From a virus, in the IMG/VR virus record IMGVR_UViG_3300045988_100160, positions 1-64,000 of that record: a stretch of DNA of 64,000 nt; one strand, written 5' to 3'. Within the stretch, counting starts at the first letter, position 1; each line of letters begins with the position of its first letter. The notes under the pieces are model-generated. The model saw nothing but the letters and a program-made list of their open reading frames with translations. It was not told where the DNA came from and did not search any database. Below are positions 258 through 63,673 of the stretch, one piece after another. A program made the position numbers and the translations under genes.

Positions 258-365
258 TTAACCCTCTTTCATTTCTGATAATACTGTATATACTCTATTC
301 ATGAGATATACCATAGATACGGCGAACAAAACTCCAAACAAATTTTTTAATATCAATAATTCCAT
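258..365 (-). CDS. 35-aa hydrophobic peptide (MELLILKNLFGVLFAVSMVYLM...), hypothetical
   Basis: ATG 365..363 preceded by GAGGT. TAA stop (260..258) lies 1 nt before the GTG start of the next ORF. Below the ORF-track size cut-off. Confidence 0.3.
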   Translation of the reverse strand: MELLILKNLFGVLFAVSMVYLMNRVYTVLSEMKEG

Positions 366-449
366 AGGCTATTACCTCGCTTTCTATGGTCTTATTGTCT
401 CATATCTATAGTATTCTGTACAATAGTTTTTATCTATGGTTGCCATAGT

Positions 450-464
450 TTTAAGTTATGACTA
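450..464. repeat. left copy of a 15-bp inverted repeat TTTAAGTTATGACTA
   Basis: Exact reverse complement occurs at 2165..2179. It lies next to the small palindrome CTATGG-ttg-CCATAG (434..448). Confidence 0.6.
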
Positions 465-502
465 ACTACGATAATAAAATACACATGTTTAATGAATATA
501 TA

Positions 503-531
503 TAAATACCACAAATTTATAAAATTGTCAA
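503..531 (-). promoter_or_regulatory. candidate sigma-70 promoter (TTGACA-17-TATTTA)
   Basis: rc of 526..531 is TTGACA, then a 17-nt spacer, then rc of 503..508 is TATTTA. It points at the small ORFs at 365 and 256. Confidence 0.35.
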
Positions 532-654
532 GTCATAGGTAAAATCCAGCGTAAATGAGAATGTCTCTCAATAAAACGTTCATTTATTTGATCTATAAGG
601 TGTCTCTAAAGAGTCCGCCTTATAATTATATGCAAAAGTGCAAAAACGCCGTAG

Positions 655-673
655 AACGCAAATAAATGAATTT
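655..673 (+). repeat. 19-bp exact direct repeat AACGCAAATAAATGAATTT, copy 1
   Basis: Identical 19-mer at 2792..2810. Both copies lie in non-coding DNA. Confidence 0.7.
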
Positions 674-908
674 TAGGGGTATTGTCTAAATGAGAATACG
701 CAAGCAGTCTTTTGTATGCATACATAAGTTATGAATTTGTGTTTTTGTGGTGTACACCGTTGTATATCGAATATTTTCAATGTGTTATTGACAAATGTTA
801 TCATTATTAATTAACATCTAAAATTTTCGATATGGTTTCTGCTGGTGATGGTTGCAATCGTATTGTATGCAATCGAATTTCACGCAACGATTTTTCAAAT
901 GAATATAT

Positions 909-920
909 GAACATATGTTC
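909..920. promoter_or_regulatory. LexA-type (Cheo) box GAACATATGTTC
   Basis: Exact match to the GAAC-N4-GTTC core of the Firmicute SOS-box consensus CGAACATATGTTCG, embedded in cATATGAACATATGTTCA. Degenerate copies at 936..947 and 979..990. Confidence 0.55.
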
Positions 921-1385
921 AAACATCAGTTATCTGAATATGTGTTCATATGAGCATACGTTCAGATGAAAAACATATGAATAACTGTTCATGTATTCAT
1001 CCATGACTAAAATGCATGTATGCACATATATTCATATAAGATATATAACATTGGTTGTATACAATTAAATTGTAGTGTTCCGCTGGTTTTATCGTATTGA
1101 TAATATTTCTCATTCTTGTAGCGGTATATAGTGATGTCTACTATAGAGAGACAAAACATAGATATATGTACACCAAAACAAACAAACGCAAAAAAGCGAC
1201 AAAATGCATATGTTATAAAATCGTGTATTTTCGCTTGTATGCTCGTGTACCACTCTAACGTATAATCATAAGGGGAACACTCGAAAACGCTCGTATAACT
1301 CAAATAATGCAACTTTTATTTGAGAACAATTATCAACTACGCTGGCTTTTCTCATTTGTAGATGCTAATTGAGAATACAACGGCA

Positions 1386-1413
1386 AAACTAAAGGCGGTA
1401 CTTGTGTACCGCC
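1386..1413 (-). terminator. rho-independent terminator after CDS 1420..1707
   Basis: Stem GGCGGTAC/GTACCGCC (1394..1401 and 1406..1413), 4-nt loop, then TTTAGTTTT on the minus strand. Confidence 0.65.
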
Positions 1414-1419
1414 GTTGTT

Positions 1420-1707
1420 TTATTCAAAATCTTCCAATTCTTCCATTAAATCACATTTATAGTCATTATCGACATTGTCTATTAAATACTTTACATACTC
1501 ATCTAAATTATTTTCAATGTCTTCGATGATCTCGTAAGGGTCTACATGTTCCCCTATGTTAGTATGGACTAAATCCAATAATACTTCCTCTAGTTGATAC
1601 TCTTGAGATAATTCGAGAATAGTTTTACTATTGCCGTCAGCGTAACCAATTAAAAACTCGATTAAATCTTGAGCGTTATATTCTTGTTCTATTGTAAAAT
1701 ACATCAT
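1420..1707 (-). CDS. small, strongly acidic protein (95 aa); possible DNA-mimic or anti-restriction type, unproven
   Basis: ORF track. AAAGGA lies upstream of ATGATG. About one third D/E residues (ends ...DLMEELEDFE). Has its own terminator. Confidence 0.6.
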   Translation of the reverse strand: MMYFTIEQEYNAQDLIEFLIGYADGNSKTILELSQEYQLEEVLLDLVHTNIGEHVDPYEIIEDIENNLDEYVKYLIDNVDNDYKCDLMEELEDFE

Positions 1708-1769
1708 AACGTTTTATCCTTTCTAATTCTGATAATGTGGCGGTAGTGATCACTACCGCCAATATTTTC

Positions 1770-2048
1770 CTAGATGTGCAAAATTACCTTTTCCACCTTC
1801 CAATTATACCAATCTAGGCGAACGCCTAAATCAATACCATCTAAGCAATTTCCAAAGAGACTGCAGCCACAAGCGTTTACATTAAAATATTTTTGGTCGG
1901 TGTTAGTCTCATAAGTTCGCTGAGTTTCTGTAAAAGGCTTTTCCCAATTATCCTTACTATAGATAATTGTAATTTTCTTATGAGTATCGTATAAGTCATT
2001 ATTATATACGTACTCGCTTAATGCTGATAAACTAGAAAATCCTTTCAT
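1770..2048 (-). CDS. hypothetical protein (92 aa from the internal ATG)
   Basis: ORF track 1770..2066. I prefer ATG 2048 because AAAGGGG lies upstream. A 22-bp perfect palindrome hairpin (1739..1760) follows the stop. Confidence 0.55.
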   Translation of the reverse strand: MKGFSSLSALSEYVYNNDLYDTHKKITIIYSKDNWEKPFTETQRTYETNTDQKYFNVNACGCSLFGNCLDGIDLGVRLDWYNWKVEKVILHI

Positions 2049-2164
2049 GAGTTTTACCCCTTTCATATATAATTGTTAAAGACCTACGAAAGATATTTAT
2101 CATCTTTCGTTACACTCATTATACACCTAGAGGAACAATCTGCATAATAGAAAAAATCTATAGC

Positions 2165-2179
2165 TAGTCATAACTTAAA
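2165..2179. repeat. right copy (inverted) of the 15-bp repeat TTTAAGTTATGACTA
   Basis: rc of 2165..2179 equals 450..464. It sits in the loop and arm of a local hairpin TATAGCT...AGCTATA (2159..2185). Confidence 0.6.
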
Positions 2180-2467
2180 GCTATACCCCTTGCAGGCGGT
2201 ACTCATGAAATTAAATTGCATACAATACAGTTGTACCACATCATATGAATATATGTTCATATGAGTATACATCGGTTATATGAATGTATGTTCATATGTT
2301 CAAACATTCATATGATTGAATACAACTGAGTTGAACACAACTATATCGAAAGTTTTCGTTCTGTAATCCTTTAGTTATCTAAAGTTTTCGAACTGATTGA
2401 GATTTTTCGATATACTTTATTCATCTAAAGTTTTCAATCTAATCGAAAATTTTGAATGTATTAAATC

Positions 2468-2479
2468 GAACATCTGTTC
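2468..2479. promoter_or_regulatory. LexA-type box GAACATCTGTTC (flanked C...G, so CGAACATCTGTTCG)
   Basis: Fits GAAC-N4-GTTC and includes the outer C/G of the 14-mer consensus. Confidence 0.5.
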
Positions 2480-2791
2480 GCTGGTTGCAGGCGGTCTCGC
2501 AGGTCGTGGCGAACATGTGTGCGGTCAATATGTAATGCCTTGAAAAAACAAACATATGTATCAATATATGAACACATATACATATAAAAAATGGGTGAGA
2601 TATATATGTATATATACATGTGTAAAATATCGTGGACATATACATATAAATATATACAAATGTAAAAATCCGTGGACAATATCATATATATAAACAATAA
2701 AACCACCACAGAATTGATTTAAATCGTTTATACGGTGTGTTTATATCCACGGTGGTATATTTGTATACCCCATATGTGAAAACCACCGTAC

Positions 2792-2810
2792 AACGCAAAT
2801 AAATGAATTT
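2792..2810 (+). repeat. 19-bp exact direct repeat AACGCAAATAAATGAATTT, copy 2
   Basis: Identical to 655..673. Confidence 0.7.
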
Positions 2811-2831
2811 CATGGGATGATGCGGTCGTAT

Positions 2832-2843
2832 GAACATATGTTC
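2832..2843. promoter_or_regulatory. LexA-type box GAACATATGTTC
   Basis: Second exact copy of the 14-bp palindrome TGAACATATGTTCA (2831..2844). Confidence 0.55.
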
Positions 2844-3295
2844 AATCATGGGTGTTGCACCACGGTATCTCAGATGGTTAAAACAAACAGATGTTCGATT
2901 GTTTATTTCTGTGGAAGCATCCATGGTTCGTCAATAGAATAACCCATGAACACACCACAATAAACATTAATAGATAAACACATATATCACCGACACATAT
3001 ATACGTTTATTTAATACCACGACATATACAAATAAAAAATACCACCGCATAAAACGTGGACACATAACGAACGTATAATGTATAAGCATATATGCTGCGG
3101 ATGCACGATTGTTTCATGCAGGTGTTCGCCATGGTTTTCTATGCGATGGTATTTGATTTCTGTGACAACAGTAGATGAACGCATGAACATTTCCGTGTGG
3201 TGAATGGTGGTATGATTGCCTGCGTGATGTGTTTGGGATGCATCACACAATGAATGTGGTGTTTGCCATGCGTTTGCAACCTGTTGTCTATATGT

Positions 3296-3325
3296 ATGAT
3301 AACACAAGACGGTTTGTGTTGTCAA
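3296..3325 (-). promoter_or_regulatory. weak candidate promoter (TTGACA-18-TATCAT) firing into the ORF-free region
   Basis: rc of 3320..3325 is TTGACA and rc of 3296..3301 is TATCAT. No credible ORF lies downstream. Confidence 0.3.
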
Positions 3326-3404
3326 CAACCAATGTGTTTTTCTTGGGTTTTATTTTTTGAAATCTTGTTTTTTATTTTTTGGTTTTTAATTTTTTGGATT
3401 TGGG

Positions 3405-11714: not shown

Positions 11715-12131
11715 CTAGTCACAAGTTCTAACACCAATAAACTCAATTAAGTTTTCCCAATTGTGTGACTCGTTGCTATTAATGGTAACATAAGTGATGT
11801 CAAATTTGCTGTCGTATAAATCAATAGTACAGCCCTCTAAAGACTTGAATAAGTGTAAATGTTTCTCAGCGGTCGGTAATGCTTTGCGATATAGTTCAAA
11901 GATTTTAAACTCATAGGCTTCACTTAATGCATTAATACTGCTTTCTACATCAACTGTATGTCTGTGGGAATAATATTTATCGACAGGCTTTAATGGTCTA
12001 CTATCGTGAACTTCAAAAATATCACGGCTTGGATTGTAAACAATACATTCTGCCCCATGTACATAGTTTAGAAATACGACTGGTCTACCAAATACATCTT
12101 CACATAGCTCGCCTGCTACAAATTTACTCAT
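11715..12131 (-). CDS. hypothetical protein (138 aa)
   Basis: ORF track trimmed to ATG 12131 (AGGAGA upstream). Confidence 0.55.
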   Translation of the reverse strand: MSKFVAGELCEDVFGRPVVFLNYVHGAECIVYNPSRDIFEVHDSRPLKPVDKYYSHRHTVDVESSINALSEAYEFKIFELYRKALPTAEKHLHLFKSLEGCTIDLYDSKFDITYVTINSNESHNWENLIEFIGVRTCD

Positions 12132-12822
12132 TTGTTTTCTCCTGTGCATTAAAAATCCGTTGTTTGGCAACATCAAAATACATTGGGTCTAACTCAATAC
12201 CAATGAAATCTCGACCCAATTCAACGGCTGCAACACCTGTTGTACCAGAACCCATAAATGGGTCAATAATGGTATATTCTTTTGGCAGAATACCAATAAT
12301 GTTTTTCATTACTTGTAATGGCATCTGACATGGATGCACTGTTTTTTCTGCTGAGGTGTTCTTCACGATATTAATGTTCCACCAATCGTAAATCGGTGTG
12401 CCCTGTGAACCGTTTTCAATCAACCGTTTAATCCGTTTATCATTTGGGTTCTTATATGGTTGTAACACTTGTTTAAAGTCAGGTGTTACACCAAAGAACG
12501 CAATGTCTCGGTGTTGCTTGCGGTTGTTTGAATTATATACCCATGATACCACTTTAGTTGGTGGTCTGTCAATATCAATCGCAAGTTGATACAGTTGTTC
12601 TGGATAGTGAATAACAACAGATGGATGCGATGGATTGAACACCTGTTGCAACATCTGTCTATAATCTCCATCGCTCATTCTGTCGTGATAACCGTTGTAA
12701 TGATACCCAATGTTAAACGGAGGGTCTGACACGATGATATATGGTTTATTTTCCGCTTGCAATTGGGTTTTGATGGGTTGCAATATGGTTCGACAATCGC
12801 ATTGATGTAGCTCAATCATCAT
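12124..12822 (-). CDS. DNA methyltransferase, beta-class amino-MTase (N6-adenine or N4-cytosine)
   Basis: Motif IV is DPPF (VSDPPFNIGY). It precedes motif I, FxGxG (IDPFMGSGTTGVAA). Start trimmed to ATG 12822. Confidence 0.8.
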   Translation of the reverse strand: MMIELHQCDCRTILQPIKTQLQAENKPYIIVSDPPFNIGYHYNGYHDRMSDGDYRQMLQQVFNPSHPSVVIHYPEQLYQLAIDIDRPPTKVVSWVYNSNNRKQHRDIAFFGVTPDFKQVLQPYKNPNDKRIKRLIENGSQGTPIYDWWNINIVKNTSAEKTVHPCQMPLQVMKNIIGILPKEYTIIDPFMGSGTTGVAAVELGRDFIGIELDPMYFDVAKQRIFNAQEKTNE

Positions 12823-13210
12823 AGTCTTCCTCGAATAACATTTTTGCAATTTCTTCATCATAACTAAAGCCAAGTAGCCTTAAGATGTCGTCTTTGTCTT
12901 TTTCAGTAAAGTCTCTATGACCGTTTAGTTTGAGAGACAAATTTGTGAGACTAATTCCTAATAGGGATGCAACTTTACCGACACCCAAATTACGGTCTTT
13001 AAACATTCCTCGCAACATTGTGTGTCGTTCTTGGTATCGTGTTCCAATGTCTACTTTGAGTCGTGCAAGGTATGTTTTGACATCTTCAATATCTTTAAAA
13101 GTGTCATCTTCTAATACATTTTGCAACTTTGACAGCAACACCGATGTTTCTTCAAACTTCTTGTAATCTTCTTCGATTACAACTCCATTAATTCGTACAT
13201 GTGTTTTCAT
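12812..13210 (-). CDS. helix-turn-helix DNA-binding protein (XRE-like C-terminal HTH)
   Basis: ORF track trimmed to ATG 13210 (GGAGGA upstream). HTH-like segment LGVGKVASLLGISLTNLSLKLNG. Confidence 0.5.
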   Translation of the reverse strand: MKTHVRINGVVIEEDYKKFEETSVLLSKLQNVLEDDTFKDIEDVKTYLARLKVDIGTRYQERHTMLRGMFKDRNLGVGKVASLLGISLTNLSLKLNGHRDFTEKDKDDILRLLGFSYDEEIAKMLFEEDYDD

Positions 13211-13255: not shown

Positions 13256-14551
13256 TTACTTACTTAATAAATTTTCCAACATTTCAACACGTTCTTTTAA
13301 CTGTTGTAATTCATCTCGTTTAACATTTGTTGTTTTACCAACCTTAAAGTTTACAGATGCATTAGTTACAGAAGAAGAACCAAAAGACTGTCCAACGTAA
13401 AACATTACATTTTCATTCGGAGCGTAGAACGCACCCAATGCACCAGCGTTTGCATTTTTGTAATGTCCAAAGCCTGCACTAATAGAGAACTTATTATGTG
13501 CATCGAAACCATTCCAATGTAATGCTCCTAAAGCAGATACAGATGCAATAGCTGCATTGGTGCCACGTTCTAATTGGTTTACTTTATTGGTAATATCACC
13601 CAACATTTGTTGGCTTGAGTGCTCCAATGTGGTAATTCGGTTTTCATGGTTCATAGACACCTGTTTCAACGCTGAAATATCGCTTGTATGAGCGTTTTGA
13701 ACACGCTCTAGTGTATTTGTTCGTGCACCTAAATTTGTAATCGCTTGGTGGTTATCATTAATTAATGCCATTCCAGTACCAATGTCTGCCGCATTTTGAC
13801 GGATGCGATTATCAAATGTACTTACCGTTGTGCCAAGATTATAAATCTTGTTGCCGTTATTTGTAATTTCATCAATGGCTGCATACAACTGAGAACCATT
13901 GACTGCATCTAAGGAATCTGTGGTAATACGACCAGCAGACACATTTTGTAATTGTCGGTTGTAATTGTGGATTGCACTATAGGTGGAAGATTGTGTAGCA
14001 CCAAATGACACACTGGAGTTTGGACTGTCACCTGCGAACACATGAGTCGTGCCATTGATGTCCATTTGACTAAACGCAACAGGGTCAGATGTTTGAGAGT
14101 TTGTGCCAATTGCCACAGAGTTCTGTACTGGGGCACTTGCGTTGTTGCCAACAACCACAGCATCAATACCACGGACAACAGAGTGAGTACCAATGACAAT
14201 TGAACCTTGGTTGTCAACCGTGTTATTTGCACCGATTACAGTTTGTTCTTGGTGATTGCCAATGTAATTATTATAGCCAATTACAGAGGATTGATTCGCA
14301 GATGTTGTACCATTGCCACCACCTAAGATGATATTATCGTTGCCATTCACAGTATTGTCACGACCCAATACAATCGTATTAGTACCATTCACAACTGTGT
14401 TTGCACCGATTGCAACACTATTATAACCTGTTGCTATAGGGTCAACCGCAGATGGTTCTAAAGAGCCAATCGCAACTGGGTTGGCGGACACACCCATAGT
14501 TGCCATTGCTAATACTGCGGAAATAATCATAGTTTTTGTTTTGTTTTTCAT
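13256..14551 (-). CDS. YadA-type trimeric autotransporter adhesin (431 aa) with a post-anchor coiled-coil tail
   Basis: Signal peptide MKNKTKTMIISAVLAMATMGVSA. Head repeats NSVAIGANTVVNGTNTIVLGRDNTVNG. Neck motif RQLQNVSAGRITTDSLDAVNGSQLY. Stalk heptads. C-terminal beta-barrel anchor AAIASVSALGAL...SISAGFGHYKNANAGALGAFY...ASVNFKV. A further 27 coiled-coil residues follow the anchor. Confidence 0.85.
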   Translation of the reverse strand: MKNKTKTMIISAVLAMATMGVSANPVAIGSLEPSAVDPIATGYNSVAIGANTVVNGTNTIVLGRDNTVNGNDNIILGGGNGTTSANQSSVIGYNNYIGNHQEQTVIGANNTVDNQGSIVIGTHSVVRGIDAVVVGNNASAPVQNSVAIGTNSQTSDPVAFSQMDINGTTHVFAGDSPNSSVSFGATQSSTYSAIHNYNRQLQNVSAGRITTDSLDAVNGSQLYAAIDEITNNGNKIYNLGTTVSTFDNRIRQNAADIGTGMALINDNHQAITNLGARTNTLERVQNAHTSDISALKQVSMNHENRITTLEHSSQQMLGDITNKVNQLERGTNAAIASVSALGALHWNGFDAHNKFSISAGFGHYKNANAGALGAFYAPNENVMFYVGQSFGSSSVTNASVNFKVGKTTNVKRDELQQLKERVEMLENLLSK

Positions 14552-21992: not shown

Positions 21993-22065
21993 TGCACCCA
22001 GCAAGATTTGAACTTGCATCACGAGAAGATGATAAAATCGTTGCTTTTCATTAAGCTATGGGTAC
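21993..22065 (-). ncRNA. tRNA-like element (73 nt) with a non-canonical anticodon region
   Basis: 7-bp acceptor stem GTACCCA/TGGGTGC, D arm GCTT..AAGC, T arm GCAAG-TTCAAAT-CTTGC. I could not fold a 5-bp/7-nt anticodon arm by eye. Confidence 0.35.
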
Positions 22066-22220
22066 ATAACGACTTGGGTTTTACCCCAAGTCAGTCAGGA
22101 GGAAAAATCATGCGTATCTCTTGGACTGTTACCCAAGACATACGATGTATGCCATCCGAATGAGAAACCCTTGAGTAACCCATTCGGTGATACAATGCCG
22201 TAACATATGTATCGTGGCTA

Positions 22221-22306
22221 TGGTGCCGTTGATAGGATTCGAACCTATGAAGCTATAAGCGACAGATTTACAGTCTGTTGTCTTTATCCATCTTGACTAC
22301 AACGAC
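22221..22306 (-). tRNA. tRNA-Tyr (GTA), class II with long variable arm, CCA encoded
   Basis: Acceptor GTCGTTG/CAACGGC, anticodon loop CTGTAAA, T arm AGGTTCGAATCCT, 86 nt. Confidence 0.8.
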
Positions 22307-22310
22307 ATGC

Positions 22311-22400
22311 TGGAGGAAAGTGTGGGATTTGAACCCACGGAACATTTCTGTTCAACAGTTTTCAAGACTGTCGCATTAAACCAGACTCTGCCAACTTTCC
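22311..22400 (-). tRNA. tRNA-Ser (TGA), CCA encoded
   Basis: Acceptor GGAAAGT/ACTTTCC, anticodon loop CTTGAAA, long variable arm, T arm GTGGGTTCAAATCCCAC, 90 nt. Confidence 0.85.
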
Positions 22401-22403
22401 ATG

Positions 22404-22478
22404 TGGCTCTTGGGATAGGACTCGAACCTATAACTCTCTGGTTAACAGCCAGATGCTCTACCATTGAACTACCCAAGA
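22404..22478 (-). tRNA. tRNA-Asn (GTT), CCA encoded
   Basis: Acceptor TCTTGGG/CCCAAGA, anticodon stem TCTGG/CCAGA with loop CTGTTAA, T arm TAGGTTCGAGTCCTA, 75 nt. Confidence 0.85.
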
Positions 22479-22641
22479 ATAAATACAACACCACTATATA
22501 CTATCGGATTTGCACTCGATATTTCCGCCCAAAAGGACTTTGTTTTACTCTTAAACTAAGTATGTAGCTGTTGCGTGGCATACATGGTAAAACATTCCAT
22601 GGCTACGTTCTACCCTTAACGGCAATGCATGAATACCGTTT

Positions 22642-22731
22642 TGGAGGATGGTACAGGATTTGAACCTGTGGTTGTTTTGCAACAACATTTCTTTAGCAAA
22701 GAAACTCAATAAGCCACTCTGACAACCATCC
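22642..22731 (-). tRNA. tRNA-Ser (GCT), CCA encoded
   Basis: Acceptor GGATGGT/ACCATCC, anticodon stem TTTCT/AGAAA with loop TTGCTAA, long variable arm, T arm CAGGTTCAAATCCTG, 90 nt. Confidence 0.85.
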
Positions 22732-22832
22732 ATGTGAGTGGGTTGAGAAAACAGGGTACCTCCGTTCTCTCTCTAACGGCAAACCAACTCATACCGACCA
22801 CCATGGTTGCGACCCATAGTGGATTTACCTTA

Positions 22833-22949
22833 TGGAGAATGTTGGATTCGAACCAACGTCTTCTACTTCGTACACTCTGAACCGTCAAATTTCTGGAGTC
22901 GAACCAGTATGTTGAACCTCATAGTGCTTTACCATTAAGCTAATTCTCC
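22833..22949 (-). ncRNA. aberrant tRNA-like gene (117 nt): canonical acceptor, D and T arms but about 45 extra nt in the anticodon/variable region
   Basis: GGAGAAT...ATTCTCC acceptor pairing, D arm GCTT-AATGGTA-AAGC, T arm GTTGG-TTCGAAT-CCAAC. The 68-nt middle contains a second T-arm-like hairpin, CTGG-TTCGACT-CCAG. Confidence 0.4.
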
Positions 22950-24661: not shown

Positions 24662-24930
24662 TAGTCCTCCGATAACGTAATCACGGTATTGGATTTCTTA
24701 TGATATTCATCGACATAATACTCATTGGTATTGCCATTAAATGTCACTTCCCAGTATGTATGGTCGTAATCATCATGTGTTGACATAACCAATGCTTTAT
24801 GGTTTCGCAATGTTTTTGAGAACCAAACAATGTTTAGAGACTCAGATACCTCATCAACTTTATTGTCTTCGACATTCATGGTAAGCAATACGGCTTCGAT
24901 ACAGTTATCAATAAATTTATTCATTACCAT
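24661..24930 (-). CDS. hypothetical protein (89 aa)
   Basis: ORF track 24661..25050 trimmed to ATG 24930 (AGGAGG upstream). TAATG coupling to the helicase gene. Confidence 0.55.
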   Translation of the reverse strand: MVMNKFIDNCIEAVLLTMNVEDNKVDEVSESLNIVWFSKTLRNHKALVMSTHDDYDHTYWEVTFNGNTNEYYVDEYHKKSNTVITLSED

Positions 24931-25816
24931 GTAACCTCCTGTGGTGTTCAATAATATTCTTCCCAAGTTCATATATAATCGGAATAGACACGGAATTACC
25001 AGCTTGTTTATACAATTGTGCGTTCGATTGTATCTTTGCACAGGTATCAAACTGTTGGTCTGTAAATCCTTGTAATCGCCAGAATTCTCTAGGGGTCAAC
25101 TTGCGTATTACATTAGGATTGCGACTTAATAATATCTTTGGTTCAATACCACCGCCCTTGACACACGTCAAAGTTGGGGATAACCCATGTGGTGAATATA
25201 TGCGACCTCGTTGTGGATTGCCAACAAAAGAAGTCGTATTGATTATGTTTCCGACTTGAACAATAGATTGTTCGCTTTGGTTTGGTCTGTATAAAATGTC
25301 TTCGGTACATCCGTTTCCAAGATGTCCGATAATGTACACCCTTTCACGGTTTTGTGGTAGTCCAAAGTCTTTTGTGTTATACACACGCCATGCGATACTG
25401 TACCCTGCTTTGTCCATTTCAGACAAAACCGAGTAAAATCCACATCCGTTGTCAATTGACAAGAGGTTTTTAACATTCTCAATAAGCAACCATTGGGGTT
25501 TATGTTTTGTTTCATGTAATAGCCTCGTAATCTGATAAAACAAACCACTTCGAGTGTTTTCCATGCCGTGTTTAAGACCAGAAATGGATACCGACTGGCA
25601 TGGAAAACCACCGCACCACAGGTCTGCATACGGCATCTCTGTACCGTTTAATGCACGAATACCTGGTGAAAACCAAAGATTATCCGTTGGGTATAACGCA
25701 CGGTATGATGCTTGTGCGTATTTGTCTTGTTCGCACCAACCAATGCACTCCATGCCAGCTTTGGTTAAGCCAGAGTGGAAACCGCCGATACCAGCGAATA
25801 AATCAATGAATTTCAT
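24917..25816 (-). CDS. DNA (cytosine-5) methyltransferase
   Basis: Motif I FAGIGGF, motif IV GGFPCQSVS, motif VI ENV (LIENVKNL), motif VIII QNRERVYI. Confidence 0.9.
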   Translation of the reverse strand: MKFIDLFAGIGGFHSGLTKAGMECIGWCEQDKYAQASYRALYPTDNLWFSPGIRALNGTEMPYADLWCGGFPCQSVSISGLKHGMENTRSGLFYQITRLLHETKHKPQWLLIENVKNLLSIDNGCGFYSVLSEMDKAGYSIAWRVYNTKDFGLPQNRERVYIIGHLGNGCTEDILYRPNQSEQSIVQVGNIINTTSFVGNPQRGRIYSPHGLSPTLTCVKGGGIEPKILLSRNPNVIRKLTPREFWRLQGFTDQQFDTCAKIQSNAQLYKQAGNSVSIPIIYELGKNIIEHHRRLHGNE

Positions 25817-61561: not shown

Positions 61562-61576
61562 TCACAAAGCAATCAA

Positions 61577-61636
61577 CAGGGCATACATAAGTTTATATCT
61601 TATGATATATTCTTATGTATGCCCTGTTTGTGTTTC
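61577..61636 (+). terminator. rho-independent terminator (15-bp stem)
   Basis: CAGGGCATACATAAG (61577..61591) pairs with CTTATGTATGCCCTG (61612..61626), then TTTGTGTTT. Confidence 0.7.
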
Positions 61637-61932
61637 TTGGGGTTGAGTCTGTATGTCTCACCTGTATGTTGTTCTGTAGGCTCATAGGTTAGGTCTCAAA
61701 CATAATATCTGACTATAAAGCAAACACGTTAGTGTTTATTGTCGAAGACAATCCTATAGGTATATACTTATGTATTCTTTAGAGTATTCTTGTTTAGATT
61801 GCTTCGCAATACTCCTTACGGAGTGTCTTTCAAGTCGGTTTCTTAAGTTTGGGGCAAAACCCTTTTTCAAAAGCTGTTTCTTAAAACTCTTTCAAGAAAA
61901 CCATCGCTTTAAAACCTATAAGTGAAAACTCT

Positions 61933-61970
61933 CTCTATATATAGGGTAAAACACTTGATTTTTGTAACAC
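61933..61970. repeat. 38-bp conserved element, copy c (CTCTATATATAGGGTAAAACACTTGATTTTTGTAACAC)
   Basis: 34/38 identical to copy b. Lies in ORF-free DNA. Confidence 0.7.
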
Positions 61971-62366
61971 ATTTTTCATAAAATTGGATAAATATTTTAT
62001 TTTACAAGCTAAAATTTACCCCTCAAAAATGCCACTCCGCCCAGTAAACATCTGCGTTTTGAGACTTGAAAAAATTTTTTAGCTTTTATGAGTAAAAAAT
62101 GCCACATAAGTCTTAAATCGGTAAAATCCGATACATGATTTTTAACTCACGCCACACTAGGTTGGTGTCACTACACTAGGCTTACGACAGTATAATTCTT
62201 GGGTTGGACACAATTTGACCCACGTGGGATAAAATCGAACGAATGTACGTTGGAAAACACAACCATAGTATTATGACGAGTTTTCGCCAACGCCATCCTA
62301 GGGTCGTGATTTTTGGTGGAAAATATTTTGGCTTCGGCTGCAAGTTAGTCTGACTAAAAATAAAGC

Positions 62367-62390
62367 AATCACCATACTAGTATGGTGATT
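62367..62390. repeat. 24-bp perfect palindrome AATCACCATACT|AGTATGGTGATT
   Basis: Read directly from the sequence. The half-site CA(C/T)CATACTAG recurs at 62509..62523 and 62974..62989. Confidence 0.8.
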
Positions 62391-62953
62391 AACTATGTTG
62401 AAAAAGATTGTCTATACGATACACAATCCTAGTAGGATGCAACCCTAGTACCATGTCACAAACTTATAATAACGCTATACTAGGAAAACATATATCAGAA
62501 AACATAATCATCATACTAGGGTTTACGTTTTATAGAAATTACATAAGTTACCCTGTGTGCAACTATAAAAATTTCTACAAAAATTTTAAACGATTGTATT
62601 TTCGATAGACAACCCTAATTGGAAAATACGATTGTTCCATATGATGTTTCATATCTTAGACAATCAATAAGAACGATTGTTTTCTCGATAGTTTTTGCGA
62701 TTGCTTTCTACATATGTCATATGTTCGTATGTATGAAACCATAGATAAAACAAGGGTTTGTAGACCATTGTATGTTATGGGGTATGGAACATTTGTATGT
62801 GCGTGACAAGTTTGTTCATATGTGTTGACTGTGGTATGGTCTTTTGTATGGTCTTGGGTTTGTTATGATTATACCGCCCCCAGTTGAGAATGGTTCTCCC
62901 TTTTGGATATTGAAAATTTTCGATACGCCTAGGGGTGTCTCATTGGTTCATAT

Positions 62954-62965
62954 GAACACATGTTC
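62954..62965. promoter_or_regulatory. LexA-type box GAACACATGTTC
   Basis: Fits GAAC-N4-GTTC. Embedded in TTCATATGAACACATGTTCACATATG. Confidence 0.5.
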
Positions 62966-63110
62966 ACATATGCACCATACTAGGGTTAGTCAATCAATCG
63001 AATAGTATCAATGTAATAGAATATCCATTATCATTCATTCATTATCATTTGTATTCTCAATATGTAGATATCCTAGATAGACAAATGTCGATATATATGT
63101 TTGTACATAT

Positions 63111-63122
63111 GAACATTTGTTC
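63111..63122. promoter_or_regulatory. LexA-type box GAACATTTGTTC
   Basis: Fits GAAC-N4-GTTC. Embedded in ACATATGAACATTTGTTCATGTG. Confidence 0.5.
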
Positions 63123-63638
63123 ATGTGTCAGCTAATGGTTTACAGTTGGGTAACATATGAGCAGATACTCATGTATGCACCATATGCATTATACTCATGA
63201 TTTTTAGTAATGTTTGTTATTGGTGTTTGGCTGGTGGTGGTTACAATTGTATTTTATAAAATGTATTTTGATTGGGTATATCAATAGGGTTTGAAAATTC
63301 TGTAGTACACATCAAACCCAAGTCCCCACCCTAGTAGCCTACATACGCACCACCACACACGCACAATAGACATATACATACGTCTATACATCTGTTACAT
63401 ACATTAATTATACATATGTATAAACCAAATAAAAATACAACGGTATACATCAATCGTATATAACCGTTATATTTTGCGTTGTATGGTCTTTTGTTTTCGT
63501 TGCATATGTTTATATTCGAAAGTCTTTAAACGCACCATATAACTCAAATAACGCAATTGTATTTTCTCATTTAGGTAAACATATTGAGAATACCAGCGTA
63601 TATATGAATGGTTGTTCATATGATAGATATAAATATAA

Positions 63639-63663
63639 GCGGTACAGAATTGATCTGTACCGC
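63639..63663 (-). terminator. hairpin terminator after CDS 63674..63997
   Basis: GCGGTACAG/CTGTACCGC 9-bp stem with T-rich flanks on both strands. Confidence 0.6.
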
Positions 63664-63673
63664 TTGTTATTGT

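Follow-up and report, generated by a model that had tools for sequence, protein, structure and literature searches.

Cheo-type boxes in three gene-free zones

The DNA considered here, positions 1 to 64,000 of the IMG/VR virus record IMGVR_UViG_3300045988_100160 (the window), is 64 kb of an uncultured siphovirus of ~68 kb, and its non-coding DNA carries repeated GAAC-N4-GTTC boxes, the core of the Cheo box that is the operator of the SOS repressor LexA in Gram-positive bacteria. The minus strand carries nearly all genes, between 60658 and 3405, and three zones hold no credible open reading frame (ORF; Table 1); gene prediction run independently on ten related contigs likewise placed no gene in any of the three. 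Off-window, between the zones, lie ~4.5 kb of small genes, about eight of them as seen in the relative L002, and a region of low coding density of ~10 kb runs through zone 3, this small-gene block, zone 1, two small genes (1420-2066) and zone 2. The gene-free share of the phage genome is ~7% and is filled with several repeat families. A tyrosine recombinase was the only recombinase- or regulator-like gene found adjoining the zones.

No relatives at the DNA level were found in INPHARED, while IMG/VR holds many, as contigs of 64-73 kb from human samples. Judged from sequence, the host is almost certainly Veillonella, a diderm Firmicute, since a cousin with 64% identity in the large terminase (TerL) sits in a 232-kb contig of Veillonella sp. 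3310. The window also encodes a YadA-like trimeric autotransporter adhesin (13256-14551, minus strand) with head, stalk and membrane-anchor domains, an unusual cargo that fits a diderm host.

The window contains six exact GAAC-N4-GTTC sites, against 0.73 +/- 0.80 expected from 100 dinucleotide shuffles, none of which reached six. Five lie in the 4.6 kb of ORF-free DNA, three at the left (909, 2468, 2832) and two at the right (62954, 63111), and one (46182) lies in the 58 kb of coding DNA, so that the two densities differ ~60-fold. When one mismatch was allowed, 15 of 50 sites fell in the ORF-free 8% of the window, and these 15 have ATATG...CATAT flanks in common. Extended forms are likewise in excess: ATGAAY-N4-RTTCAT occurs five times against 0.16 expected, and CGAAC-N4-GTTCG with at most one mismatch five times against 1.1. 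A 24-nt matrix derived from the sites, used at a cut-off of 15 bits, matches at 16 places, all within the three zones and none in the 58 kb of coding DNA; in ten further genomes, matches of at least 18 bits are confined to the three zones within those loci. The arrays formed by these sites fill the three ORF-free control zones, which bracket early small-gene cassettes.

The first-pass annotation of this DNA had described exact boxes at 909-920, 2468-2479 and 2832-2843 and one-mismatch GAAT sites at 936, 979, 2247 and 2282, all of which are correctly placed; a GAGC site at 952 can be added. It had estimated about one chance occurrence in the window, and the excess that it proposed is borne out, as is the confinement to non-coding DNA; the equal density in coding DNA that it had named as a refuting result was not seen. 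Its description of a cluster in the left ORF-free region was right in that the region is free of ORFs, but that region comprises two of the three zones, and the right-end set (62954, 63111, 63159 and 63606) had been missed.

Architecture of the phased arrays

Rather than a handful of separate SOS operators, the sites make up phased arrays of Cheo-type half-sites, in which the boxes are the members that match best. The palindromic unit reads (A)CATATGAAY-N4-RTTCATATG(T), and the arrays are built of GAAY/RTTC tetramers that alternate with 4-bp ATAT-like spacers at a period of 8 bp. The CATATG flanks pointed out earlier are present, but they are not mere context: because of the 8-bp phasing, C-ATAT-G is the end of one box, the spacer and the start of the next, and CATATG therefore belongs to the repeat itself. 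The hexamer CATATG shows a 7.9-fold enrichment in ORF-free DNA, with 23 copies in the three zones and 36 in the 58 kb of genes. When family sites were tabulated with ATGA-N8-TCAT alone held fixed, the 63 unique sites obtained had the conserved frame (A)CATATGA...TCATATG(T).

Phasing was counted over 82 kb of low-coding region from ten genomes, with structural genes as the control. Box-to-box distances peak at 8, 16 and 24 bp, with no such peaks in the structural genes, and the same phasing is seen in the window alone. At a distance of 8 bp there were 71 inverted, 17 everted and 53 direct pairs, and at 16 bp 42 inverted pairs; the units form runs of three to five (-><-, ->-><-, -><-<- and -><--><-). 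Contiguous 7-8-bp units in mixed orientation, the layout of arrays bound by ribbon-helix-helix (RHH) proteins, occur in the ORF-free zones only. Two arrays, A and B, each lie within a long imperfect palindrome (Table 1); the orthologues of the array B palindrome fold better than shuffled sequences in eight relatives (z = -4.6 to -8.3), and around 62954 folding does not differ significantly from that of shuffled sequences (z = +0.3).

A cluster of discrete LexA operators, as one would read the first-pass annotation, is not supported by this anatomy: the units are phased arrays with loose half-sites that show no extra conservation. Across the family, the number of strict GAAC-N4-GTTC boxes per genome ranges from none (L107) to six in ten further genomes, L107 keeps its arrays, and over 16 close relatives two of the three exact boxes first described, 909 (0.70) and 2832 (0.69), rank with the least conserved. 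Box 952 is also conserved at 0.70, box 979 at 0.92 and array B at 0.89-0.97, against 0.85 for its zone. Several relatives have the 909 unit in the opposite orientation, GTTC in place of GAAC, with the inverted pair displaced by 8 bp. Turnover thus affects single boxes, whereas the arrays persist as a class. Similar units, for example TATATGAATGTATGTTCATATG, are kept in relatives with ~90% TerL identity.

One box stands apart. The C/G-flanked 14-mer CGAAC-N4-GTTCG occurs without mismatch only at 2467-2480 and with one mismatch at 2510, 2884 and 62236, whereas the array units are flanked by T...A within CATATG, and the plain inverted repeat GAAC-N4-GTTC is found at the five strict ORF-free sites, most array units being one-mismatch forms (GAAT, GAGC, ATTC). 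In eight distinct relatives the 2467-2480 box keeps GAAC in 8/8 and GTTC in 6/8, the other two having GTTT, while its spacer (ATCT, AAAT, ATAT) and flanks vary; half-sites are conserved at 0.94 against 0.875 for the spacer, a constraint that the arrays do not share. Nine of ten further genomes (L103-L112) have CGAACAT(C/A)TGTT(C/T)G at the equivalent position, L110 being the one without. The B. subtilis LexA consensus is CGAAC(n)4GTTCG (PMC4551915), and the lexA, recA and ruvC operators of C. difficile take the form GAAC-N4-GTTT (PMC4234289). The earlier description of the sites as LexA boxes thus holds in that their core and ATAT-type spacer fit the Gram-positive Cheo consensus and that 2467-2480 is canonical; the array units do not have this canonical form. 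With its LexA-operator-like conservation, 2467-2480 is the best candidate LexA site, and it alone might, weakly, be classed from its sequence as a LexA operator. A GAAC-N4-GTTC core with an ATAT spacer corresponds to the B. subtilis optimum, CGAACATATGTTCG.

Other readings of the unit were considered. As a micro-ORF (ATG AAY NNN TGT TCA TAT G, or MNxCSY...) it would give peptides whose lengths range from 7 to at least 100 aa and in which conservation does not go past the DNA motif, and this was rejected, as was a sequencing adaptor or artefact, given that spacer and flanks vary and that the sites are internal in this family. A strand-specific RNA hairpin was checked through the G-U wobble orientation of hybrid sites and gave a bias of 23:11 only. 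No Rfam family was found on the palindromes; at gathering thresholds tRNAs alone were matched, plus spurious microRNA-hairpin matches. Tyrosine-recombinase core sites have two inverted arms about an asymmetric overlap of 6-8 bp and occur singly or in few copies; the unit can be read in this way as 8-6-8 (CATATGAA / YNNNNR / TTCATATG), with a recombinase adjacent, but it is present in at least 16 phased copies and its asymmetry is of mixed orientation (23 vs 11).

Table 1. Features of the zones and their surroundings (window coordinates unless a contig is named; conservation as fraction identical).
Feature	Position	Strand	Remarks
ORF-free zone 1	259-1419		no credible ORF; between the off-window early small-gene block and two small genes
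ORF-free zone 2	2067-3404		no credible ORF
ORF-free zone 3	61562-63673		flanked on one side by the recombinase/membrane-protein operon, on the other by the end of the early small-gene block
Early small-gene block, first gene	starts ~257	-	mostly off-window
Small acidic ORF, 95 aa	1420-1707	-	no family match; a 95-aa gene is called here in nearly all relatives
Small ORF, 98 aa	1770-2066	-	directly downstream of array B in the direction of transcription; no family match
Tyrosine recombinase, 176 aa	60761-61291	+	catalytic domain only; PF00589 8e-24, phrog_216 5e-54
Array A	895-1040		12-nt cores start at 901, 909 (strict), 936, 952, 979, 1022; matrix 17.8-28.8 bits
Imperfect palindrome holding array A (inverted repeat I2)	899-1000		fold z = -5.6 (plus strand), -4.2 (minus strand)
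Strict box GAACATATGTTC	909-920		in array A; half-site conservation poor, 0.70
Imperfect palindrome of ~125 bp holding array B (inverted repeat I1, 57-nt arms)	2216-2340		fold z = -5.0, -6.6
Array B cores	start at 2247, 2282, 2290 (direct), 2298		best-conserved array, 0.89-0.97
Putative promoter TTGAAC-17-TATAAC	2303-2275	-	covered by boxes 2282-2301; read by eye
Perfect canonical 14-bp Cheo box CGAACATCTGTTCG	2467-2480 (core 2468-2479)		zone 2
One-mismatch canonical-type site CGAACATGTGTGCG	2510-2523		right half not conserved as GTTC
Degenerate array unit GAACACATATAC, within ATATATGAACACATATACATATAA	2570-2581		matrix match 23.1 bits; equal score in 9/10 of L103-L112
Strict box GAACATATGTTC	2832-2843		TATG..CA flanks; half-site identity 0.69; lost in L028; least conserved part of zone 2
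AAAC-N4-GTTCG site	2884-2897		equivalent to Clostridium-type GAAC-N4-GTTT; AAAC..GTTC kept in L002, L028
Promoter-like TTGACA-18-TG-n-TATCAT	3325-3296	-	conserved; reads into zone 2; spacer palindrome ACACAA...TTGTGT
One-mismatch canonical-type site CGAACGAATGTACG	62236-62249		
Strict box GAACACATGTTC	62954-62965		CATATG flanks; zone 3, beside the conserved island
Strict box GAACATTTGTTC	63111-63122		CATATG/CATGTG flanks; zone 3
Symmetric variant GAGCAGATACTC (ATGAG..CTCAT)	63159-63170		matrix match 21.5 bits; orthologues keep GAGY..ACTC
Unit GAATGGTTGTTC	63606-63617		ATATATG/CATATGA flanks; zone 3
Canonical-box tandems in other phages	L058 150-340; L076 730-815		

The zones hold further sequences of note. 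An island in zone 3 (62841-62924) is 78-99% conserved across all family groups while the adjacent non-coding DNA diverges; it has the invariant stretches CCGCCCCCAG, CCCTTTTGG and TTTTC, and a small hairpin, GAGAATGGTTCTC, that is GATAATGGTTATC in some relatives, a compensatory change. The island might serve for packaging or recombination, or as an origin. Repeats of a second family, (T)ATCGAAA-N-TTTTCGAT(A), occupy 763-831, 2342-2464, 62598-62607 and 62912-62925, with a 46-bp stretch duplicated in tandem at 2366-2457; TTTCGATA shows a 42-fold enrichment in ORF-free DNA, and relatives with ~90% TerL identity have this family's perfect palindrome ATATCGAAAGTTTTCGATA. A third (ACTAGG / CCCTAG / TACTAGG; 62150-63335) has eight copies in zone 3 against seven in all coding DNA. 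Zone 2 (2562-2680 and 3055) also holds three AT-rich tandem repeats of 38-40 nt and CGTGGACA, which resembles a DnaA box with two mismatches; together with the TTTTCGA repeats, these sequences suggest an origin-like look. Downstream of the last gene of the long operon, a T-rich stretch (3296-3400) is 97-100% identical in 16 relatives.

The repeat unit in other phages

The 22-mer CATATGAAY-N4-RTTCATATG matches 70 stretches in IMG/VR, of which ~14-17 come from this family. Composition-matched controls gave four stretches with everted half-sites and 26 with permuted half-sites, all single matches. Since these controls give 4 and 26 contigs against 70, the claim that the unit crosses lineages has to be tempered, and a good share of the single outside matches may be due to chance. 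Several outside matches are nevertheless beyond chance. In L058 and L076, contigs of 165-168 kb, tandem units at a 16-bp spacing abut tandem canonical CGAACATAYGTTCG boxes at a 15-bp spacing, followed by a terminator. In L057, which is phi29-like, the terminal repeats hold a canonical box, and 31 bp from it lies a unit; five related phi29-like contigs of 12 kb carry one unit ~50 bp from both ends. A lineage of 62-65% GC has six phased units in an AT-rich island, and L087 (82-3922) and L081 have seven canonical CGAACATAYGTTCG-type boxes within 4 kb.

Most outside sites (52/65) are hybrids of one GAAC half and one GAAT half, often followed by a third in-phase half-site (TTCA), which makes an oriented unit, CATATGAAT-NNNT-GTTCATATGTTCA, that is also present in the window at 2282-2303. 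Packaging ATPases recur within 1.2 kb of the unit in about six lineages, and no DNA-binding Pfam family adjoining it was recurrent. A shared phage protein, a candidate explanation for the presence of the unit in unrelated phages, was rejected: the outside carriers and the window family had no protein in common by tblastn, blastp or phmmer over the available stretches. The Amedibacillus phage AD70P2, a cultured relative of the phi29-like carriers, does not have the unit in its terminal repeats.

The cousin prophage of Veillonella sp. 3310 has an equivalent ORF-free zone of ~2 kb beside its recombinase (L032 6100-8160) that is filled with ATCTATAGAT palindromes and ATAGGGGTATAYCG. The latter also occurs in relatives with ~90% TerL identity, and the unrelated 12-kb phi29-like contigs carry it as CTATAGGGGTAT in their terminal repeats.

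What may read the arrays

The structural genes of the phage include a Mu-like large terminase and portal and a tape measure of 1658 aa. It encodes a DnaE-type Pol III alpha, DnaB, DnaG, RusA and a T7-SSB-like protein (a weak match, below the family cut-off) for replication, ThyX, dUTPase and dNMP kinase for nucleotide metabolism, and two DNA methyltransferases (12124-12873 and 24917-25816), one of the N6/N4 and one of the C5 type. A tRNA cluster lies at 21993-22949 on the minus strand, with six tRNAs by Rfam and four by ARAGORN (Tyr, Ser x2, Asn). The exact 176-aa recombinase protein occurs in 453 blocks of public assemblies, in which the longest carrying contigs are 63-70 kb. Because no carrying contig among these blocks exceeds 200 kb, the lineage has not been seen in an integrated form; the phage is very prevalent in human samples and is virulent or episomal. 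A screen of 68 proteins of the window and L002 found no helix-turn-helix (HTH), LexA-like (LexA_DNA_bind), S24, RHH, ParA or ParB domain.

We consider it likely that the arrays are protein-binding operator arrays of some kind, within which a host repressor and a phage-encoded binder are sub-cases. More tentatively, and at less than even chances, we favour host LexA as the protein, possibly with a helper, the arrays being a sensor of, or a sink for, the SOS repressor. Several observations lead us to this reading: the enrichment and ORF-free confinement of the sites, in the same three zones in ten further genomes; the 8/16/24-bp phasing, with the inverted arrangement dominant; the match of core and spacer to the Cheo consensus, taken from Bacillus and Clostridium; the conservation of the canonical box 2467-2480; the GTTT/AAAC variant, in that box of some relatives and at 2884, which is the C. 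difficile operator form; units that adjoin canonical CGAACATAYGTTCG boxes in unrelated phages (L058/L076, L057); the occurrence of the unit without a shared phage protein; the lack of an HTH, S24 or LexA-like protein among the 68 screened; and the precedent of GIL01.

Under this model, the arrays would load several dimers of a winged-helix repressor that reads the Gram-positive Cheo box, with host LexA as the leading candidate and the canonical box 2467-2480 as the high-affinity member. A phage helper might stabilise LexA on the degenerate units and lone half-sites, as gp7 does in GIL01. Occupied arrays would shut embedded promoters, for example the putative one at 2303-2275, which lies ~200 nt upstream of the start codon at 2066 and whose hexamers are kept in most group-A relatives. 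Expression of the early or accessory cassettes, or the firing of a zone, would in this way be tied to RecA-driven cleavage of LexA, and the units, at least 16 per genome, could soak up LexA as genome copies rise.

LexA-type control regions are already known in phages, and it is the phased array form that appears to differ here. In the tectivirus GIL01, LexA binds a full box and an adjacent lone half-site with the help of gp7 (PMC4551915; PMC6182141). The lysogeny switch of GIL01 has host LexA and gp7 on dinBox1/dinBox1b and dinBox2/3, and its gp6 is a LexA-domain homologue. The two systems are alike in having several LexA-type boxes in control regions, among them a full box next to a lone half-site, in degenerate sites that would need a helper and in having no classical repressor; the lineage's never having been seen integrated would be compatible with a GIL01-like lifestyle, as it would fit a virulent phage or an episome. 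However, GIL01 has 2+2 boxes on mapped promoters, whereas here there are at least 16 units, in arrays and palindromes, across three ORF-free zones of 1-2 kb in a ~68-kb siphovirus that has its own replisome and whose lysogeny is unproven. No gp6- or gp7-like protein was detected among the 68 proteins screened, although gp7-like ones might escape Pfam. Compared with the LexA operators of B. subtilis and Clostridium, the sites have the same core, an AT-rich spacer of the ATAT type, GTTT/AAAC variants and non-coding confinement, and 2467-2480 is alike as a perfect 14-mer with LexA-like conservation. The array units, in contrast, differ in their T/A flanks, loose third and fourth bases, CATATG frame, 8-bp stacking in all orientations and distance from start codons.

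A number of observations weigh against LexA. Within the half-sites, the inner positions are loose (third base A 73% or G 21%, fourth base C 47% or T 48%), GAAC is present on both halves in only 6 of 39 unique family 16-mers, and the flanking bases of array units are T/A where canonical boxes have C/G. The CATATG flanks are no less conserved than the core, and the frame exceeds the LexA footprint; over the 16 close relatives, identity is 0.845 for array half-sites, 0.839 for spacers, 0.882 for flanks and 0.879 for the rest of the zones. Direct and everted phasing is likewise enriched, for which a pure dimer site has no need. The nearest start codon is 180-770 nt away for most boxes, and overlap with a predicted promoter is confined to 2282-2301. 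The array motif was not found in the cousin prophage of Veillonella sp. 3310, L107 maintains arrays without any strict box, and one unrelated carrier is T7-like, probably with a Gram-negative host. The gene set looks virulent, with its own replisome, nucleotide-metabolism genes and tRNAs and without a repressor. Furthermore, the Cheo consensus used for comparison is that of Bacillus and Clostridium and may not be that of Veillonella; nothing was found in the literature on a LexA motif of Veillonella or the Negativicutes, a search with the B. subtilis LexA protein matched Bacillus only, and among 150 clusters from a search for LexA representatives, the ten inspected were Weissella, Cellulosilyticaceae and metagenome proteins.

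The arrays could instead be operators or centromere-like pads for an unrecognised phage-encoded protein, either a small RHH protein or a LexA-domain mimic like gp6 of GIL01, with the likeness to the Cheo box a partial mimicry or a coincidence; we regard this as a live alternative, only slightly less probable than host LexA. A phage repressor that imitates LexA was also among the roles proposed in the first-pass annotation. Omega of pSM19035 (7-bp heptads), ParG of TP228 (4-bp boxes with 4-bp AT spacers) and MetJ (metboxes) are RHH proteins that bind contiguous 7-8-bp units in either orientation. The contiguous 8-bp units, direct, inverted and everted, with 4-bp boxes and AT-rich spacers, and the position of the arrays upstream of operons recall such systems, although the arrays differ from them in unit sequence and in a clear preference for the inverted arrangement. 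A conserved frame (CATATGA...TCATATG) that outreaches the LexA site, the turnover of sites in retained arrays and the lineage-specific pattern, the cousin prophage zone having ATCTATAGAT and ATAGGGGTATAYCG instead, also speak for a phage-encoded binder. A small binder could also hide among the phage proteins, most of which have no family match. Against this stand the absence of HTH, RHH, ParA and ParB domains from the 68 proteins screened and the occurrence of the unit in unrelated phages that have no common protein (phmmer, blastp; available stretches) and no recurrent DNA-binding family next to it.

Alternatively, the palindromes of ~110-125 bp could themselves be the functional units, as cruciform or hairpin origins, as packaging or recombination sites near a leading or packaging end, or as hairpins of a non-coding transcript. 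The hairpins are strong both in the window (z = -4.2 to -6.6) and in relatives (z = -4.6 to -8.3), zone 2 has the 46-bp tandem TTTTCGA repeats, the 40-nt AT-rich repeats and the DnaA-box-like CGTGGACA, the conserved minus-strand promoter at 3325-3296 reads into that zone, and the phage encodes DnaB, DnaG and Pol III alpha with no recognised initiator; units of other phages are found ~50 bp from the genome ends or no more than 1.2 kb from packaging ATPases. Yet the isolated units 2832, 62954 and 63606 lie outside palindromes, the fold at 62954 is not significant, no Rfam family matches, and the relatives are too alike to reveal compensatory changes. Nor does a 4-bp spacer leave room for the core of a tyrosine-recombinase site, and the copies number dozens; we find this explanation improbable. 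Least credible of all is that the arrays are neutral or selfish low-complexity DNA, AT-rich CATATG palindromic repeats spread by slippage or duplication where no coding constraint acts, with GAAC-N4-GTTC as a by-product: boxes conserved no better than background and in part among the least conserved positions, the flip of an 8-bp unit at 909 and a control 22-mer that matches 26 viral contigs are what it would predict, but arrays sit at the same three places in all close relatives, with similar ones in relatives of ~90% TerL identity, inverted pairs are well in excess of a random mix, array B is better conserved than its zone, AT-rich arrays are maintained in phages of 62-65% GC, and the everted control pattern found four contigs against 70 for the unit.

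Returning to host LexA, a bolder form of that reading takes together the Veillonella siphovirus, the 165-kb contigs, the phi29-like genomes and the 62-65% GC phages as carriers of one portable, previously undescribed phage element. Such an element, a stack of 8-bp-phased LexA-type half-sites near leading or packaging ends, would be a landing pad or sponge for the SOS repressor that senses the loss of LexA or titrates LexA as the genome replicates, forcing the host SOS response. We put this forward as a speculation that is unlikely to hold.

For motif scans, the present case is a caution that an exact match to the Cheo box can be the tip of a different, longer repeat. Should the arrays bind something other than LexA, they would point to a new regulator, or to an origin or packaging device found repeatedly among unrelated phages. 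If they do bind host LexA, the single well-studied case of GIL01 would be extended to a different type of virus and to the diderm Firmicutes, and a prevalent phage would use a multi-site array to read or manipulate the SOS state of Veillonella, an abundant human commensal.

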